Assembly: GCA_964645765.1 (NCBI GenBank)
Contig: CAZYBE010000001.1
Span: forward strand, 7,456-71,455
Length of the DNA stretch: 64,000 nt
Source: an uncultured Eubacteriales bacterium
Lineage (GTDB): Bacteria; Acidobacteriota; Aminicenantia; Aminicenantales; Aminicenantaceae
Reading direction: 5' to 3'
The notes below the pieces were generated by a model, which was not told the DNA's origin, did not search any database, and was given only the letters and a program-made list of their open reading frames with translations. Below are positions 2,987 to 47,693 of this stretch, in pieces (positions within the stretch are counted from its first letter, which is position 1; each line of letters starts with the position of its first letter). The position numbers and the translations under genes were made by a program.

Positions 2987-4135
2987 ATGAAACTTTTAAG
3001 CCGCCATCAAGTGGAGAACCTCTCCAAGTTCAAGAGTGAAAAATATTTAACAACCTCTTTTTATCTCAACACAGACAAAAGTCGGATGACAAAAAAAGAA
3101 ATAGCTCTTTCTTTGAAAAATCTTCTCAGCAGCGGAAAATTGCAGGCAGAGCAGATGGAAATGAGCAGGGAGAAGAAAGAGTCGCTTTTCCAAGACCTCG
3201 ATAAAATAAACCGCTTCTGTCTCGAACAGCTCGGCTCTTACAATTTCCACGGACTGGCCATATTCTCCTGCAGCGGCCAGAACTTCTGGCAACTTTTTAA
3301 CCTTCCCAGCCCGCCACGGAACAGAATCATCTTCGACCAGAATTCCTATGTCCGGCCCCTTTCGGCGATACTGGACGAGCATCGCCGCATTTTTGCCCTG
3401 ATTCTGCACCGGAGAGAAGCCAGATGGTACGACATTTTCATGGGGGAAATCACATCGCTCGAGAGCCTTTCGAGCGATGTCCCGAGCAAAGTCAGGGAAG
3501 GAGGCTTCGAAGGCTATGAATCGAAGAGAATCGAAAGGCACATTGCCACTCACCTCCATGACCATTTCAAGAAGGTCGCTCAAAAGACTTTCGATTTATT
3601 CAAGAAGAATCATTTTGACTGGCTCTTTCTGGGATGCAACGAGAAATACCGGGCAGACTTCGAGCCCCTCCTCCATCCCTATCTCAAAAGCAGGCTGCGG
3701 GGCTGGCTCAAGGCCATGCCCACCGATTCTGCGGCATCCATCCTCAAAGAATCGCTGGAACTGGAGAAAAATCTAAAAAAGGAAGAAGAAGGGGAGATCG
3801 TTCAGAATTTTGTCTCGGAACTGGAGAAGGGTGGCTTGGCTGTTTCAGGATTAAAAAATACACTCTCCAGCCTTAATCGCGGGGAGACCTTGACTCTGCT
3901 CATCACCCGCAACTTCTCAGCTCCGGGAAGAATCTGTCCTCAGTGCTACTCCCTGTTTATCGAAGAGCTCCGCTGCCCGACTTGTCAGAAGAAGACTGAA
4001 AAAGTGGTGGATGTCGTTGACGAAGCCGTAGAGGCGGCCATGAATAAACAGAGCACTGTCAAGCACATCAACCCTCCTTCAAGATTGAATAGATACGGAA
4101 AAATCGGAGCCCTGCTCAGGTACAAGACACAATAA
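2987..4135 (+). CDS. eRF1/Pelota-like (baeRF-type) domain protein with C-terminal C4 zinc ribbon
   Basis: AGGAGG SD before the ATG at 2987. The central region 'GLAVSGLKNTLSSLNRGETLTLLIT' resembles eRF1/Pelota domain 3 (AVYGxxEVxxALExGAVxTLLI). The C-terminus has 'CPQC...CPTC'. Family assignment is by motif recall only. Confidence 0.4.
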   Translation: MKLLSRHQVENLSKFKSEKYLTTSFYLNTDKSRMTKKEIALSLKNLLSSGKLQAEQMEMSREKKESLFQDLDKINRFCLEQLGSYNFHGLAIFSCSGQNFWQLFNLPSPPRNRIIFDQNSYVRPLSAILDEHRRIFALILHRREARWYDIFMGEITSLESLSSDVPSKVREGGFEGYESKRIERHIATHLHDHFKKVAQKTFDLFKKNHFDWLFLGCNEKYRADFEPLLHPYLKSRLRGWLKAMPTDSAASILKESLELEKNLKKEEEGEIVQNFVSELEKGGLAVSGLKNTLSSLNRGETLTLLITRNFSAPGRICPQCYSLFIEELRCPTCQKKTEKVVDVVDEAVEAAMNKQSTVKHINPPSRLNRYGKIGALLRYKTQ

Positions 4136-37516: not shown

Positions 37517-37864
37517 TGGAGGCGGCGGGAATCGAACCCGCGTCCGAAGACATTCAACACGAGGCTTCTACATGCATATCCTCTCCTTCAATCTCGTTCT
37601 GCAGCGTCCGAAGAGGAGGGACACAGCCGAACCAGCCCCGATGGAACTTCGCTTGCCAGGCCCAGGACCAACCCGGCTTGCTATCCCGCTTGTCGACGTT
37701 TCTCAAGCGCCGCAGGAGAGCACTTGAAAACCGGCATGCCTATTCTTTAGGCAGCAACAGGCAGAGTTTCTGCGCTTAGTTTTTTTTCCACCGTTTAACG
37801 AGGTGGGTGGGACCTCGACATGCCGCCTTTGTCTCATTGTCTCCGTCGAATCCTGTTCGCCCCC
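37517..37864 (-). ncRNA. ssrA: tmRNA (transfer-messenger RNA)
   Basis: 5' GGGGGCGAACAGGATTCGACGG and 3' tRNA-like end ...GGACGCGGGTTCGATTCCCGCCGCCTCCA. An internal reading frame ends ...GAA ACT CTG CCT GTT GCT GCC TAA, giving a tag that ends ...ETLPVAA. CCA is not encoded. Confidence 0.9.
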
Positions 37865-39152: not shown

Positions 39153-39230
39153 TGGCGGGGCCGACGAGACTCGAACTCGCGACCTCTGGCGTGACAGGCC
39201 AGCGTTCTAACCAAACTGAACTACGACCCC
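39153..39230 (-). tRNA. tRNA-Asp (anticodon GTC), CCA encoded
   Basis: GGGGTCGTAGTTCAGTTTGGTTAGAACGCTGGCCTGTCACGCCAGAGGTCGCGAGTTCGAGTCTCGTCGGCCCCGCCA, with anticodon loop CTGTCAC. Confidence 0.9.
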
Positions 39231-41242: not shown

Positions 41243-42571
41243 ATGGCTTCTCTAAAGCAAAAGCTTGCTGCAAAAATCGGCCCTATGCGCGAAAAGGTCG
41301 GCGCAATCATGAAAGCGCACGGCGAGATGAAGATTTCCGACGTCAACGTAGCCCAGGCTTACGGCGGCATGCGCGGTGTCAAGTGCATGGTTTGGGAAAC
41401 ATCCGCCCTTGACCCCATGGAAGGTATTCGTTTCCGAGGCTTCACCATTCCTGAGCTTCGAGAAAAGCTGCCCAAGTCTCCCAAGGGAGAAGAGCCTCTG
41501 CCGGAAGGAATCTTCTACCTCTTGCTCCTCGGCGAAATGCCTACAGACCAGGATGTCAAAGAGATTACAAAAGAATGGCAGAAGAGGAGCAAACTCCCGA
41601 GATACTTGGTCAATGTCCTTAAAGCCATCCCCAAAGATGTCCATCCCATGACCCAGTTCTCGTTAGGGATCCTCACCCTCCAGAAAGACTCTATCTACGC
41701 TCAGAAGTACACAGAGGGAATAAGCAAGATGGAATACTGGGACTCGACCTACGAGGACGTGATGAACCTTCTGGCCAAGCTCCCCTCGATTGCAGCCTAT
41801 ATCTACCGCAAATCTTACAAAGGCGCCAAGCACATTCCCGCCAATCCCAAGCTTGACTGGGGCGGAAACTTTGCCCATATGCTCGGTGTTAAGGACGAAG
41901 CCTTCAAAGAACTCATGCGCCTATACCTTGTCATTCACAGCGACCATGAAGGCGGAAACGTCTCGGCCCACACCTCTCATCTCGTCGGCTCAGCTCTTTC
42001 CGACGCCTACTATTGCCTCTCGGCTGGCATGAACGGCTTAGCCGGTCCTTTGCACGGACTGGCCAACCAGGAAGTCCTGCGCTGGATCTGGGACTTGAAG
42101 GAAAAAATTGGTGACGAGCCAACCAAAGACCAGCTGAAAAAATATGTTTGGGATACGCTCAATGCCGGCCAGGTCGTTCCCGGATATGGCCATGCTGTTC
42201 TCCGCAAGACAGACCCCAGATACACAGCCCAGCGAGAGTTCGCCCTCAAGCACCTTCCTGACGACAAAATCTTCAGAATCGTCAGCACTCTCTACGAAGT
42301 CGTTCCCGATATTCTTATGGAGCAAGGCAAGGCGAAAAACCCCTGGCCGAATGTCGACGCTCACTCCGGATGTCTGCTCTACCACTACGGCGTGAAAGAA
42401 TGGGATTTCTACACAGTCTTCTTCGGCGCTTCTCGTGCTATGGGCGTGCTCTCCCAGCTAATCTGGAGCAGGGCGCTCGGGCTTCCCATCGAAAGGCCCA
42501 AGAGTGTGACCACGGACTGGATCGAAGGCCAGATCAAGCAGGCCCAGGCTGTGCCTAAACAGCCAAGCTGA
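41243..42571 (+). CDS. Citrate synthase (eukaryotic/mitochondrial-type)
   Basis: 442 aa. 'GYGHAVLRKTDPRYT' and 'HSGCLLYHYG' catalytic His/Asp regions resemble the eukaryotic-type CS N-terminus. Confidence 0.9.
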   Translation: MASLKQKLAAKIGPMREKVGAIMKAHGEMKISDVNVAQAYGGMRGVKCMVWETSALDPMEGIRFRGFTIPELREKLPKSPKGEEPLPEGIFYLLLLGEMPTDQDVKEITKEWQKRSKLPRYLVNVLKAIPKDVHPMTQFSLGILTLQKDSIYAQKYTEGISKMEYWDSTYEDVMNLLAKLPSIAAYIYRKSYKGAKHIPANPKLDWGGNFAHMLGVKDEAFKELMRLYLVIHSDHEGGNVSAHTSHLVGSALSDAYYCLSAGMNGLAGPLHGLANQEVLRWIWDLKEKIGDEPTKDQLKKYVWDTLNAGQVVPGYGHAVLRKTDPRYTAQREFALKHLPDDKIFRIVSTLYEVVPDILMEQGKAKNPWPNVDAHSGCLLYHYGVKEWDFYTVFFGASRAMGVLSQLIWSRALGLPIERPKSVTTDWIEGQIKQAQAVPKQPS

Positions 42572-42648: not shown

Positions 42649-42781
42649 ATATCGTCTGTTCACATAGACAAAACACTCTTTCAAACCATCTTTGTCAAAA
42701 AAACTTTGAGTTAGCCAAACTGCAAAAGCTTAAGGCTTCAGCCTTTTTTTTTGATAAGTTGCTCAAAATAAGACAAGGAAA

Positions 42782-42869
42782 GTTGACTTAAATCAAATCT
42801 GTTGCCTCTAAGTCAACTTATCTTGACTTAGAAGGGAAAATCGAATATAAATCAAGCTAGGTTGACTTA
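42782..42869 (+). promoter_or_regulatory. Operator-like array of four GTTGACTTA motifs (one forming a palindrome TAAGTCAAC-ttatc-TTGACTTA) upstream of, and overlapping, the Fic start codon
   Basis: Motifs at 42782-42790 (fwd), 42809-42817 (rev), 42823-42830 (fwd) and 42861-42869 (fwd, overlapping the ATG). Confidence 0.5.
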
Positions 42870-44020
42870 TGGACAATAGAGTTGGAAAATTTATAGTTCA
42901 ACCTGCTGGATATAAGGCATTTATTCCTAATCCGTTACCACCAGAACCTCCTATTAATTTTGACGACGAATTGCAATCTTTATTATCAAAAGCAGATAGA
43001 ACTCTCGCCAGGCTAGATGGAATTACAACTGTTTTACCTAACCCAGACCTTTTTATTGCCATGTATGTGAAAAAAGAAGCGCTTTTAAGCTCTCAGATCG
43101 AGGGAACACAGGCTTCCTTGGAGGGGATTCTTGAATTTGAAGCAGATTTACCACCCAAGGAAGACATTAATGAGGTAAAAGAGGTCATAAATTATGTAAA
43201 GGCAATGAATTATGGAATTGAAAGGTTAAAAGAATTGCCGATGTCTTTAAGGCTTATTAAGGAAATCCATAAAATCTTGTTGGAAGGGACAAGAGGGGCA
43301 CATAGAGATCCCGGAGAATTTAGAAGGTCTCAAAACTGGATTGGTCCTCCTGGTGCTTCTTTGAATGAAGCGATCTATATTCCACCGCCACCTGATATGG
43401 TTCTTTCAACAATGGGTGAGCTTGAAAAATTCTTGCATAGTAAAGATAACATTCCACCCTTAGTAAGAATTGCTTTGATTCATGCCCAATTTGAAACGAT
43501 TCATCCCTTCATAGATGGCAACGGAAGAGTTGGCAGGCTTCTTATAACTTTCTACCTTTTCTGGAAAGGAATCTTAGCAAGACCGCTTTTATATTTGAGC
43601 TTTTATCTAAAAAAGAACAAAGCAGATTATTACGACACGCTTATGAAATTACGCCTGGAAGGAGCATATGAAAATTGGCTAAAATTTTTTCTGAACGGTG
43701 TAAGTGAAACGTCAGAAGAGTCAGCGAACACTGCCCGAGAAATAATAAAATTAAAAGACGATCTGATAACGAAAATCTATGAGAACTCTATATCAAGTGT
43801 TTATGCTGTTAAGCTTATAGATTTACTTTTTTTGACTCCGTTGATTAGTGTCAAAGATGCATATAAAAGATTGAAAATTTCAAATCAAGCAGCAAATGAA
43901 TTGTTCAAGAGATTTGAAAGCATCGGCATTCTAAAAGAGATAACAGGGAAACGAAGATATAAAAGGTATATTTTTAAAAGCTACGTGGACATTATAGCAA
44001 GGGGAACAGAGGGGGATTAA
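42869..44020 (+). CDS. Fic family protein (class II, intramolecular inhibitory motif) with C-terminal wHTH
   Basis: Canonical Fic motif 'HPFIDGNGRVGRLL'; upstream inhibitory 'SSQIEG' (S/TxxxEG/N); 383 aa. Confidence 0.9.
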   Translation: MDNRVGKFIVQPAGYKAFIPNPLPPEPPINFDDELQSLLSKADRTLARLDGITTVLPNPDLFIAMYVKKEALLSSQIEGTQASLEGILEFEADLPPKEDINEVKEVINYVKAMNYGIERLKELPMSLRLIKEIHKILLEGTRGAHRDPGEFRRSQNWIGPPGASLNEAIYIPPPPDMVLSTMGELEKFLHSKDNIPPLVRIALIHAQFETIHPFIDGNGRVGRLLITFYLFWKGILARPLLYLSFYLKKNKADYYDTLMKLRLEGAYENWLKFFLNGVSETSEESANTAREIIKLKDDLITKIYENSISSVYAVKLIDLLFLTPLISVKDAYKRLKISNQAANELFKRFESIGILKEITGKRRYKRYIFKSYVDIIARGTEGD

Positions 44021-44023
44021 GGC

Positions 44024-45136
44024 TTGAACAAAAAAGTAACAGACAAATTGGAGAAAATCCTAACTGGTTACTTTAAGGAAATCCACAAGACCTACACAGC
44101 AGGAGACTTCAGGGAGGAAAGTTTTTATCCAGCTTTTAAACCACTGGTTGAAGAATGCTCCAAGCTTCTTCCCCTTCAAGAAGCTGCTAATGTTCTAATC
44201 CAGCCCAAAAAGGAAGAAGCTGGCTTACTTGATTTTCGTATCGGGAAAAATGGAGAAATCGTAGGATATATTGAAGCAAAGTCGCCTGATGCCAACCTCA
44301 ATGAGGTTGAAGATTCTGAGCAGCTAAAAAGATATCGAGAATCGCTGCCTAACCTGATTTTAACCAACTTCTTAGAATTCAGATTATACAGGCAGGGAAA
44401 TTTAATAGATAAAGTGGAAGCGGGCCGCCAATTCACCCTGCAAACCTTAAAGTTTCCACCCAAGCCTGAGAAGCTAGATTTATTCTTCGGGCTACTACAG
44501 AAATTCTTCCTCTATTCCATACCAAAGATTCGGAAATCATCCGACCTTTCTGTGGAGCTGGCGAACCGAACACGGCTCCTCGAGCACAGCCTGCAAGAAG
44601 AGCTTAAAAGAGAAAATGAGGAAGTCACAAGATTCTACAAAGCCTTTCAGGAAGAGCTCATCGAGTCTTTGACCAAAGAAAGATTCGCCGACCTCTACGC
44701 TCAGACCATTGCCTACGGCCTTTTCGCTGCCAGGATGAAGGTTCAGAATGGATTTAAAAAGGAAGTTGCCTGGCAGTTCATTCCAGAAAGCTTATCCCTG
44801 CTCAGAGAAATTTTTTATTCCTTCACCGGGCCCAATCTGCCAGAATCTATGTCCTGGCTTGTGGACGAAATAGCTCAGGTGCTGGAAAAAGCTGACATCC
44901 CGGCAATTCTTCAAGAATTTAAAACTGTGCGCTGGGAAGAAGACCCTGTCATTCACTTCTATGAAACCTTCCTTAAAACTTATAATCCCACTGAAAGGCA
45001 AAGGCTGGGAGTTTATTACACTCCTCTGCCCGTGGTTTCCTATATTGTTAAATCCATCCATAAGCTTTTAAAGGAGAAATTTGGAAAGACAGAAAGGGCC
45101 GAAAGCTTTCTCTCGATGAAATCAACCATTATTTGA
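44024..45136 (+). pseudogene. 5' remnant of an MmeI-like type IIG restriction-modification enzyme (PD-ExK nuclease + helical linker + start of gamma-class N6A methyltransferase)
   Basis: TTG start 3 nt after the Fic stop. N-terminal 'LLDFRIG...GYIEAK' PD-(D/E)xK motif. MTase motif X/I 'FYETFLKTYNPTERQRLGVYYTPLPVVSYIV'. The ORF stops before motif IV (NPPY/F) and the TRD, and only about 200 bp of non-coding DNA follows. Confidence 0.6.
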
Positions 45137-45335
45137 AAATAGCAAAAGCCATTCGCCTGACCATGGAGATTCAGAAGAAAATCGATAAAATCTTTTAAAA
45201 GCAATCTCATTCACTTTATAAAATGAATGTGCTATAGTCTTTTTGCAAATTTAATCCCGATGGGTCATGATTAAGGTTGACTTCTTTTTCTATTCAGTGG
45301 TTAAATTCTAGCTTCTCTCAAGAGGAGGATAGAAA

Positions 45336-46457: not shown

Positions 46458-47693
46458 ATGCACTTCAAGCTCTTAAGCAAAAAGGACCTCAAGGCTATGG
46501 ATGCTTTGGTCGATTCCTACGGCGGGGCAAAAGAGATTTCAAACGAGATTCAGTCCAGGAGGGATTATCCAACCAGGAAGAAAATCGCCGCTCAAAAAGG
46601 ATTCGCCGAGATGCTGGAGAAGGCAGAGCAATACGCCAAAAAATTTGCCAAGGTTGAGGACTTCGTCGAAAAAAACAGAATCCGCGTGACCAGGAAGGGA
46701 ATCTGCACCACCCAGGTTTCAGGATTCCAGGCCGCCCGCCCCACTTTTGACTGCGTCAGAAGAGTTGCGGAGAACGCCGATGTGCTTTTCCCGACAGAGA
46801 TGATTTCAGTTGTGAGTCTGACCGACCATTATGTCTACAGCGGCGACCTGCTGGCGACCCTGGCCATGGCTGAGAATATTCTTAGCGCAAGCAAGTTCTG
46901 CTCGACCAACCTCATCGGGACTCCGCTTCCAGAAGAGCGATTTGCAAGGCTGGAGAAGGCGACAGGCGAGAAATTCGAGCGCAGAGACCTGGGAAAGGGA
47001 TTGAGCCAGATCATCCTGAAGAACATGGGCACACCCTACGGAAACTTAGGAGGGGTCGAGGTCGGAAATAACAACCATCTCGTCTATCTCGACGGAGTGA
47101 CAAGGGCAGCCCTGGAAACAGGCGCGAATTTCTTCCTGAACCCGAGCTGGTCAACCATCGTCGCTGCCTGCTGCTACGCAAGGGAAATTCCCAATCTCTC
47201 TTTCAAGATATCGATGCTCCTCTCCACTCAAAACGCCATCCAGTTGCGGATGCTCTTGAATATCTTCAAGGAATATCTGCGCGATGACGGGACAACGCCG
47301 ATCTACGAGATTAACATCGGAAATGCCGCAACTGCCGAGACTTTTATCCAATGCTACGACGAGATAGAAGCTTCCGGCCTTCCCAAAATCCATCTTGCTG
47401 CCCATCTCAGAATCAATCCTGATTTGGGCCTGGCCGATTTCAACTGGACTGAGAATGCCTTCAAGGTGCTCGATGCTGGCAGAGATTTGACAATCAAATA
47501 CGAGAGTGACGGAGAATCCCGGCCTTATGACACCATGCAAGCCTATTTCCTCTCTGATGAAGAGAGGGATGAAAAGGCTGAGCTCGTTGGCGATGTCATC
47601 TACCATAAATGCCTCCGCTGCGACCAGGATGCCAAAGAAATCATGAGAAGAGGGCACGAGGCAAGGTTTGCCAGGGTTTCCTATAAGAAATGA
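46458..47693 (+). CDS. Hypothetical enzyme (411 aa, Cys-rich, unknown family) in the hom/PLP cluster
   Basis: Well-formed ORF with an AGGAG SD. No motif recognised with confidence; conserved-looking Cys pairs ('VAACCYARE', 'CLRCDQD'). Confidence 0.5.
   Translation: MHFKLLSKKDLKAMDALVDSYGGAKEISNEIQSRRDYPTRKKIAAQKGFAEMLEKAEQYAKKFAKVEDFVEKNRIRVTRKGICTTQVSGFQAARPTFDCVRRVAENADVLFPTEMISVVSLTDHYVYSGDLLATLAMAENILSASKFCSTNLIGTPLPEERFARLEKATGEKFERRDLGKGLSQIILKNMGTPYGNLGGVEVGNNNHLVYLDGVTRAALETGANFFLNPSWSTIVAACCYAREIPNLSFKISMLLSTQNAIQLRMLLNIFKEYLRDDGTTPIYEINIGNAATAETFIQCYDEIEASGLPKIHLAAHLRINPDLGLADFNWTENAFKVLDAGRDLTIKYESDGESRPYDTMQAYFLSDEERDEKAELVGDVIYHKCLRCDQDAKEIMRRGHEARFARVSYKK

Follow-up and report, generated by a model that had tools for sequence, protein, structure and literature searches.

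Within the family of the Fic protein considered here, relatives serve as abortive-infection toxins. For this protein, the closest described systems are Fic proteins that bind DNA. In Yersinia pseudotuberculosis, CccR is a class-II Fic protein with a C-terminal helix-turn-helix (HTH); as a dimer, it binds inverted repeats at the -35/-10 boxes of its own gene and so represses the promoter (PMC9755527). The CccR operator corresponds to AGATAATCAT-N26-ATGATAATCT (PMC9755527; PDB 7XUX). According to a preprint on SoFic, the SoFic dimer shows specific binding to the 100 bp that precede the start codon of its own gene; the main text of this preprint, as far as searched, does not define the operator (bioRxiv 10.64898/2026.07.09.737422). 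CbFic2 from Coxiella binds random DNA with nanomolar affinity, its activity is stimulated by DNA, and DNA switches its catalytic mode (PMC10628234). Protection against phages and AMPylation of a host target such as EF-Tu are known solely from the literature on relatives (PMC12249575; bioRxiv 10.64898/2026.07.09.737422).

Here, we describe a fic gene, the repeated DNA upstream of it and the gene fragment downstream of it, in a stretch of 64,000 nucleotides from contig CAZYBE010000001.1 (the window, meaning the whole stretch that was analysed). The available data make it likely that this region holds a self-repressing Fic cassette of the SoFic type and a dead restriction-modification (RM) gene, both within an eroding defence islet between the gltA and hom genes. 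On comparative grounds, the repeats upstream of fic are almost certainly an operator array for self-repression by Fic.

The fic gene and its operator-like array

The features of the fic gene and of its upstream region are as follows.

42732-42754, + strand: terminator-like hairpin followed by a T-run, stem AAGGCTTCAGCCTT; approximately the left edge of the accessory block
42769-42790, no strand: O0, operator-like palindrome TAAGACAA-GGAAAG-TTGACTTA, one mismatch
42809-42830, no strand: O1, operator-like palindrome TAAGTCAA-CTTATC-TTGACTTA, perfect
42823-42851, + strand: putative sigma-70 promoter, read from the sequence: TTGACT (42823-42828), 17-nt spacer, TATAAA (42846-42851)
42848-42869, no strand: O2, operator-like palindrome TAAATCAA-GCTAGG-TTGACTTA, one mismatch
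42869-44020, + strand: fic, intact SoFic-type class-II gene, 383 aa, stop codon at 44018-44020

The encoded protein gives three Pfam matches above their cut-offs, Fic_N (2.5e-29, residues 38-118), Fic (5e-23) and HTH_13 (1.1e-07; 32.2 bits for a cut-off of 26.1). SoFic-like_C stays under its cut-off (21.2 bits for 27). The inhibitory motif SSQIEG (residues 74-79; 43088-43105) falls inside the Fic_N match and precedes the Fic core in the same chain. At residues 212-223 (43502-43537), the catalytic motif HPFIDGNGRVGR agrees with HxFx(D/E)GNGRxxR. The C-terminal winged HTH (wHTH) occupies about residues 305-365 (43781-43963). The PADLOC SoFic model matches almost from end to end (7.1e-124; residues 14-377 against model positions 5-359 of 361) and the SoFic chains of the PDB are found by phmmer at about 1e-40 across residues 42-377. 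Since the score against the NCBIfam SoFic equivalog NF046030 (197.8 bits) does not reach the cut-off of 550, the protein is a member of the SoFic family and not an orthologue of SoFic. Comparison with its homologue at the related locus L001 gives a ratio of non-synonymous to synonymous divergence (dN/dS) of 0.21, indicating purifying selection. As for a possible antitoxin, no conserved small open reading frame (ORF) resembling AS1 was found downstream of fic among the Fic loci; the 'MNFRAEVTPWQR' ORF that recurs at a few of them was rejected as a candidate because it resembles translated non-coding flank.

Upstream of fic, GTTGACTTA occurs exactly at 42782-42790 (+), 42809-42817 (-) and 42861-42869 (+). 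These are the only three matches in the window, and none of 100 shuffles contained at least three. A fourth copy reads CTTGACTTA, its TTGACTTA being at 42823-42830. The copies are arms within three 8-N6-8 palindromes, each of 22 bp, which are spaced by 40 and 39 bp from O0 to O1 and from O1 to O2. The first GTTGACTTA copy makes the right arm of O0, the left arm of which keeps its outer TAAG among relatives. The right arm of O1 contains the -35 hexamer, and about 20 related loci have a palindrome of the O1 type equally far from the ATG (-60/-61). O2 overlaps the -10 hexamer, a position at which TATAAG or TATAAA is kept in relatives, and its spacer carries the only AGG that precedes the start codon, which is Shine-Dalgarno-like. 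O2 ends with the A of the fic ATG, which is also the final A of the GTTGACTTA copy at 42861-42869. At the O2 position, relatives have a perfect TAAGTCAA-N6-TTGACTTATG. With at most one mismatch allowed, half-sites number 47 in the 64 kb, that is 0.075 per 102 bp, and seven of them lie inside 42769-42869. Taken with the shuffling result, this excludes chance as the origin of the array in the window.

Other candidate sites were discarded. The remaining exact TTGACTTA matches (396, 6351 and 13103) are isolated and belong to no palindrome, and a cluster of inverted repeats at 3059-3094 falls in an A/T-rich coding stretch; both are attributed to chance. TTGACTT at 45277-45283 is the -35 element of the hom promoter; every allele has it, even L002 with neither Fic nor array. 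Motif counts gave no counterpart 3' of fic, and the idea that the array forms the terminal inverted repeats of a mobile element was rejected on this ground.

The array was then compared over about 160 loci with Fic homologues (45-85% identity) from genomes and metagenomes. Among 118 distinct Fic upstream regions, one or more 8-N6-8 inverted repeats (up to one mismatch allowed) are present in 69%, versus 8.9% of 5987 control windows taken from these loci; for at least two repeats, the proportions are 42% and 0.8%. Successive repeats are 39-41 bp apart in 47 of 64 cases and their distances to the ATG are fixed. In loci where Fic is 66-85% identical, the upstream DNA has diverged and TAAGTCAA-N6-TTGACTTA is still found at -60/-61 from the ATG; many of these loci have a second perfect palindrome, ending in TTGACTTATG. 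The half-site changes with the Fic lineage. Methanoperedens archaea have TTAACTTA and Psychracetigena has CCGACTTA; two further loci have TTTACTTA, a large clade (55-57% identity) with three full palindromes has TTGAATAA, and TTACATA, TTATTAA or CTTTAAT is the half-site of still other clades. Along with the half-site, the beginning of the predicted recognition helix and one residue of the wing shift: SKEAAN/RYK accompanies TTGACTTA (SNQAAN in the window itself), SNVTAN accompanies TTAACTTA, SYQAAS/RDK accompanies TTGAATA and SYPTAS/RNK accompanies TTATTAA. This co-variation may be taken as supportive only. No conserved neighbour gene of fic was found across the Fic loci, so that the wHTH of Fic itself is the most economical candidate for the binder.

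The architecture extends to the family member for which binding data exist. In the published 300-bp sequence upstream of the SoFic gene (Table S2 of the preprint), half-sites of the form ATGTCGAT/ATCGACAT are present at -136, -107, -68, -56 and -28, with intervals of 39 and 40 bp between those in the same orientation (-107, -68 and -28). Three of the five, namely the ATGTCGAT copies at -68, -56 and -28, are included in F1, the fragment that bound best.

These results uphold the reading, made in the earlier note from the letters of the window, of an intact class-II Fic gene with an inhibitory motif, preceded by repeat copies of which the last overlaps the ATG. The copies are real, and are now resolved as arms of three palindromes. 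Their operator-like character agrees with a conserved position and co-variation with the Fic lineage over more than 100 loci, and the expected enrichment of the motif at related Fic loci was observed.

The downstream relic, its parent system and the islet

The remains of the RM gene are distributed as follows.

44024-45136, + strand: relic ORF, 370 aa, TTG start 3 nt past the fic stop
44024-45090, + strand: 5' part of the nuclease-methylase gene of a split type IIG enzyme, authentic codons 1 to about 356, 97.7% nt identity to L001
45084-45090, + strand: deletion junction, 7-bp microhomology GAAAGAC; 2302 bp lost, not a multiple of 3
45091-45136, + strand: out-of-frame read-through tail, ...ERAESFLSMKSTII*, the last 14 residues of the relic, by translation and alignment
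45100-45198, + strand: surviving 3' end of the Type_ISP_C specificity gene, last 32 codons and stop, RKLSLDEINHYLKIAKAIRLTMEIQKKIDKIF*, in another frame than the relic

The relic ORF starts behind a GAGGGGGA stretch. It contains the PD-(D/E)xK motif DFRIG...GYIEAK at residue 70 (D70...E83-A-K85), methylase motif X as FYETFL at residue 312, and YYTP at residue 331; neither DPAAG (motif I) nor NPPY (motif IV) is present in it. The PADLOC model REase_MTase_IIG matches at 1.9e-71, over positions 4-341 of 1096, corresponding to its 5' third, and in Pfam the ORF has sub-threshold matches only (HSDR_N, N6_Mtase). Its best database relative, P0001, is 98% identical, has 615 residues with DPAAGT at 368 and NPPY at 487, and is encoded at L001.

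Alignment of the window with L001 shows that the left register matches to 45090 and the right one from 45084, the crossover being inside the imperfect direct repeat GGAGAAAT..GAAAGAC. Besides shifting the frame, the deletion eliminated the MNT gene, motifs I and IV and all but the end of the specificity gene. Codon 356 is fused out of frame to the last 33 codons of what was a separate gene, and these codons are all that the window keeps of the target recognition domain (TRD). Their translation in the proper frame (RKLSLDEINHYL...KIF*) is the C-terminus of the 412-aa protein of L001, and the region is 98.3% identical at the nucleotide level to L001 4164-4464. The relic differs from the intact L001 gene by 11 nucleotides (synonymous divergence, dS, 0.026), a number that makes its dN/dS uninformative as evidence. 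Separately, over 43211-45090, dS between the window and L001 is 0.106 in Fic, about four times the 0.026 of the RM fragment; this difference hints at recombination inside the islet, on small counts. The relic would be able neither to methylate nor to recognise a target.

The gene order at L001 is Fic, the 615-aa gene, a 32-aa HEPN remnant, MNT and a 412-aa Type_ISP_C protein. The two large ORFs jointly cover one type IIG model (positions 3 to about 640 and 655-1065 of 1096). Together they comprise an N-terminal PD-(D/E)xK nuclease, a gamma-type N6-adenine methylase (DPAAGT, NPPY) and the Type_ISP_C specificity domain, the latter being a separate protein of 411-447 aa in relatives (1.7e-86). 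The family is usually split in this way, at the boundary between methylase and TRD, into ORFs of about 615 and about 412-447 aa, and the split point is read through in a few relatives (P0022, P0032). The gap serves as a cargo slot for HEPN-MNT (L002, L170, L172-174), HicAB (L171) or extra uncharacterised ORFs. This split is both old and widespread. Some variants were also observed. At L001 (2658-2756) the HEPN toxin gene is cut to its 32-aa remnant, its MNT partner (108 aa) being intact; L175 has ORFs of 399 and 626 aa with MNT/HEPN upstream; and L176/L177, from archaea, hold a relic in which two unrelated genes come between a fragment of 397 aa and a Type_ISP_C fragment of 133 aa.

A search of PDB sequences gave LlaBIII, LlaGI and DrdV as the closest relatives of solved structure for the methylase part, the similarity to LlaBIII and LlaGI being confined to the methylase region (query residues 307-610). 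No helicase-like ATPase domain was found in the 615-aa protein, which rules out membership of Type ISP. Membership of the BREX PglX family was likewise rejected. PADLOC returned no PglX among its matches, which comprise mad2 and otherwise only models of type IIG, type I or plain methyltransferases, and no brx or pglZ gene was found at L001, L002 or L170-L174, where the sole trace is a sub-threshold BrxC_BrxD match on the nSTAND1 protein of L002. MmeI is not listed among the PDB sequence hits, and MmeI_Mtase (PF20473) reaches 21.5 bits in P0001, for a cut-off of 27, with no match in the window ORF.

The alleles of the gltA-hom interval place this system in its context. The citrate synthase gene gltA lies at 41243-42571 (Pfam Citrate_synt, 2.5e-99). 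L002 has the same flanks, and its homology to the window ends at 42731; its cargo is different, since it has the RM genes with an nSTAND1/AAA_16 ATPase instead of Fic, and no array. At L003 the RM gene is frameshifted, and at L082 it has lost residues 49-562. The 'empty' alleles L164, L165, L167, L168 and L169 keep O0 and O1, after which 69 bp encode QKLAGGNKDNNDFDIRQGIAIAL, a match to residues 585-607 of P0001 (E=1.3e-6), and then comes the hom promoter. The retention of operators and of a 23-codon RM scrap identifies these 'empty' alleles as deletion scars and the islet as eroding. The 'empty' L164 and the full L001 come from one sample. The block from about 42732 to 45250 would represent a small defence islet that entered the gltA-hom interval, part-way eroded and made of two unrelated parts. 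No integrase was seen at its edges. A tmRNA gene (37517-37864, - strand, tag AETLPVAA) and a tRNA-Asp gene (39153-39230, - strand) are 3.5-5 kb upstream of the islet, neither adjoining it. After hom, a 411-aa protein without Pfam or NCBIfam match is encoded at 46458-47693 (+ strand); it is also present in every allele that reaches past hom (L002, L162, L164, L165, L168 and L169).

Much of what the earlier note proposed for this part of the locus holds. The insert-like block is evident from L002 and from the 'empty' alleles; the TTG-initiated ORF, with its nuclease and FYETFL/YYTP motifs and without NPPY, is as described; its derivation from a type IIG enzyme is established by the PADLOC match and by the intact 615-aa sibling; and the full-length copy sought through synteny exists at L001, as 615-aa and 412-aa genes. 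The term '5' remnant' is apt for codons 1-356 and misses the internal deletion of 2302 bp with its fusion to the end of the specificity gene. In 'MmeI/BREX-PglX-like', the type IIG assignment stands; PglX is without a match, and the parent is not clearly an MmeI-family enzyme, MmeI_Mtase staying below its cut-off. The suggestion that Fic is the surviving toxin partner of the RM enzyme has to be abandoned. Fic and array occur with this RM system in only five of about 160 loci, and L002 has the RM system without Fic; Fic is thus an independent cassette.

Proposed autorepression and the alternatives

By analogy with CccR and SoFic, the following mechanism can be proposed. Fic, a class-II AMP-transferase bearing its own inhibitory helix, would form a self-contained cassette. 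Its C-terminal winged helix, in a dimer or a higher oligomer, would bind the three phased 22-bp palindromes, O1 covering the -35 element, O2 covering the -10 element, the transcription start and the start codon, and O0 acting as an upstream auxiliary site. Fic would repress its own transcription in this way, so that the toxic enzyme is kept low and buffered. The dead RM gene downstream is probably co-transcribed from the fic promoter. The family of the protein and the palindromes, with their conservation and co-variation, are shown by the present analysis. Autoregulation of Fic is strongly supported by the comparative data and by precedent, and we infer binding and repression from these data and from experiments that showed both for CccR and binding alone for SoFic.

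It should be noted that several points weigh against this model. The experiments just mentioned concern relatives and not the present protein. The CccR operator is a single 10-N26-10 pair, as opposed to three 8-N6-8 palindromes phased by 40 bp. In 31% of the homologous upstream regions there is no palindrome under the 8-N6-8 definition. The wHTH and the half-site do not correspond one to one, and their co-variation follows the phylogeny as a whole; loci of the TTGACTTA class have KEA, KET, RQT or NQA at the helix start. The promoter and the transcription start of fic are deduced from the sequence, and a promoter scanner made no call for TTGACT-N17-TATAAA, its rule demanding T at position 6 of the -10 element. 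Finally, the half-sites contacted by one dimer may be either 14 bp apart, within one palindrome, or 25-26 bp apart, in neighbouring palindromes.

Imperfect co-variation would also be expected if the array were bound by another regulator, belonging to the host or encoded elsewhere, and if the wHTH of Fic had another role, such as the non-specific DNA tethering proposed for CbFic2, a protein for which nanomolar binding of random DNA and stimulation by DNA were measured (PMC10628234). However, the array accompanies Fic through bacterial phyla and into archaea as the neighbours change, its sequence follows the lineage of Fic and not that of the host, and SoFic and CccR specifically bind their own promoters. 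We consider an external regulator improbable.

The second alternative concerns the relic. Its ORF is open and its nuclease motif (D70...E83-x-K85) is intact, so that some residual activity may persist, a further point against regarding it as dead. In addition, it starts 3 nt past the fic stop behind GAGGGGGA, the same allele is found in other assemblies, and several database relatives have 330-420 aa. It could thus be imagined that the 370-aa product is alive, as a stand-alone PD-(D/E)xK nuclease translationally coupled to Fic and cooperating with it. An open frame nevertheless means little after so recent a deletion (dS 0.026), the last 14 residues are out-of-frame junk, and the domain would be untargeted without methylase or TRD partner. 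Moreover, the closest relatives have 613-625 aa, and the shorter ones end at scattered points, through contig ends and frameshifts, with no common terminus; a family naturally ending near 370 aa, which the earlier note had named as a possible refutation, is therefore not what the database contains. Sister loci decay in other ways, down to the 23-codon scrap. A live nuclease appears less probable still than an external regulator, and the dead RM gene remains the preferred interpretation.

A third possibility is that the inverted repeats work at the RNA level. In a long 5' leader, hairpins would then sequester the Shine-Dalgarno sequence and the AUG, with translational control or attenuation as a result. 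The fold predicted for 42760-42900 is indeed stable, at -35.7 kcal/mol against -22.2 +/- 2.9 for shuffled sequences (z = -4.57), which also counts against the operator model; the left arm of O1 pairs with the right arm of O2 over the start codon, and the arms co-vary as stems would. On the other hand, the best promoter is located inside the array, leaving O0, O1 and the left arm of O2 untranscribed, and two terminator-like hairpins separate gltA from the array. The imperfect palindromes show A.A and A.C mismatches, not G.U, and a regular phasing of 39-41 bp is what a protein bound to one face of the DNA would give, and not what hairpins would give. Relatives, too, bind promoter DNA experimentally. 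RNA-level control is accordingly given even lower odds, and repression at the DNA level by Fic is retained.

An assembly artefact generated from the imperfect repeat GGAGAAAT..GAAAGAC, conceivable for a junction within a short repeat in a metagenome-type assembly whose proteins lie on a 227-kb NCBI contig (227,732 bp, with the relic recorded there as P0271, a 362-aa NCBI and Logan entry), is barely credible, since L162, assembled separately in Logan from run ERR4334733, has both the array and the exact junction, another Logan contig, of 1725 bp, carries the relic protein (P0270, 370 aa), and other loci show independent, different deletions.

A more general proposal can be put forward, as a tentative idea that is itself unlikely. 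SoFic-type Fic defence proteins of bacteria and archaea might be single-protein toxin-repressor cassettes, in which every lineage has an array of two or three private 22-bp palindromes, phased by about 40 bp, that co-evolve with the winged helix. Beyond setting transcription, oligomers of Fic on the array might also fix its oligomeric and catalytic state, in the manner of DNA acting on CbFic2, promoter DNA thereby becoming part of the arming switch during infection.

Comparison with known systems

SoFic of Shewanella oneidensis (SO_4266; PDB 3EQX, 3ZCN and 9TCH) is homologous to the Fic protein of the window over its full length. In the upstream sequence published with the preprint, its half-sites are phased by 39-40 bp, as in the window, whereas the half-site itself (ATGTCGAT versus TTGACTTA) and the arrangement of the arms are unlike. 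The Sofic system of E. coli has an AS1-like small antitoxin ORF (PMC12249575), and the fic gene of the window is without such a follower. CccR (YPK_0951; PDB 7XUX), a class-II Fic protein with a C-terminal HTH that represses itself, illustrates the mechanism proposed here, although the two proteins resemble each other in the Fic core only (E 2.8e-13, residues 65-280). CccR is an effector secreted by a type VI secretion system, whereas the fic gene of the window sits in a defence islet. CbFic2 shares the class-II organisation, with DUF4172/Fic_N, a Fic domain, a DNA-binding wHTH and a dimer formed through the N-terminal helix (PMC10628234). It binds DNA without demonstrated sequence specificity, whereas the evidence from the window points to specific operators at the promoter of the gene itself.

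As for the RM part, DrdV (PDB 7LO5) and MmeI are single-chain type IIG/IIL enzymes, unlike the parent of the relic, which is split into two ORFs with HEPN/MNT (HicAB in L171) between them. LlaBIII (4XQK) and LlaGI (5FFJ), of Type ISP, share a methylase-TRD module with this parent, which lacks their helicase-like ATPase.

For genome annotation, the locus should be described as an intact defence gene of the SoFic type with an RM pseudogene, not as a working RM system. The alleles found at this one site offer a natural series of islet decay by microhomology deletions, from the full Fic and RM set to nSTAND1 with RM and to Fic with a gutted RM gene, and then to operators with a 23-codon scrap. Set beside the systems above, the locus holds nothing beyond known kinds, namely an autorepressing Fic-wHTH protein and a type IIG pseudogene. 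The main gain is a defined, family-wide architecture for SoFic operators: 8-N6-8 palindromes about 40 bp apart, with half-sites specific to each lineage.

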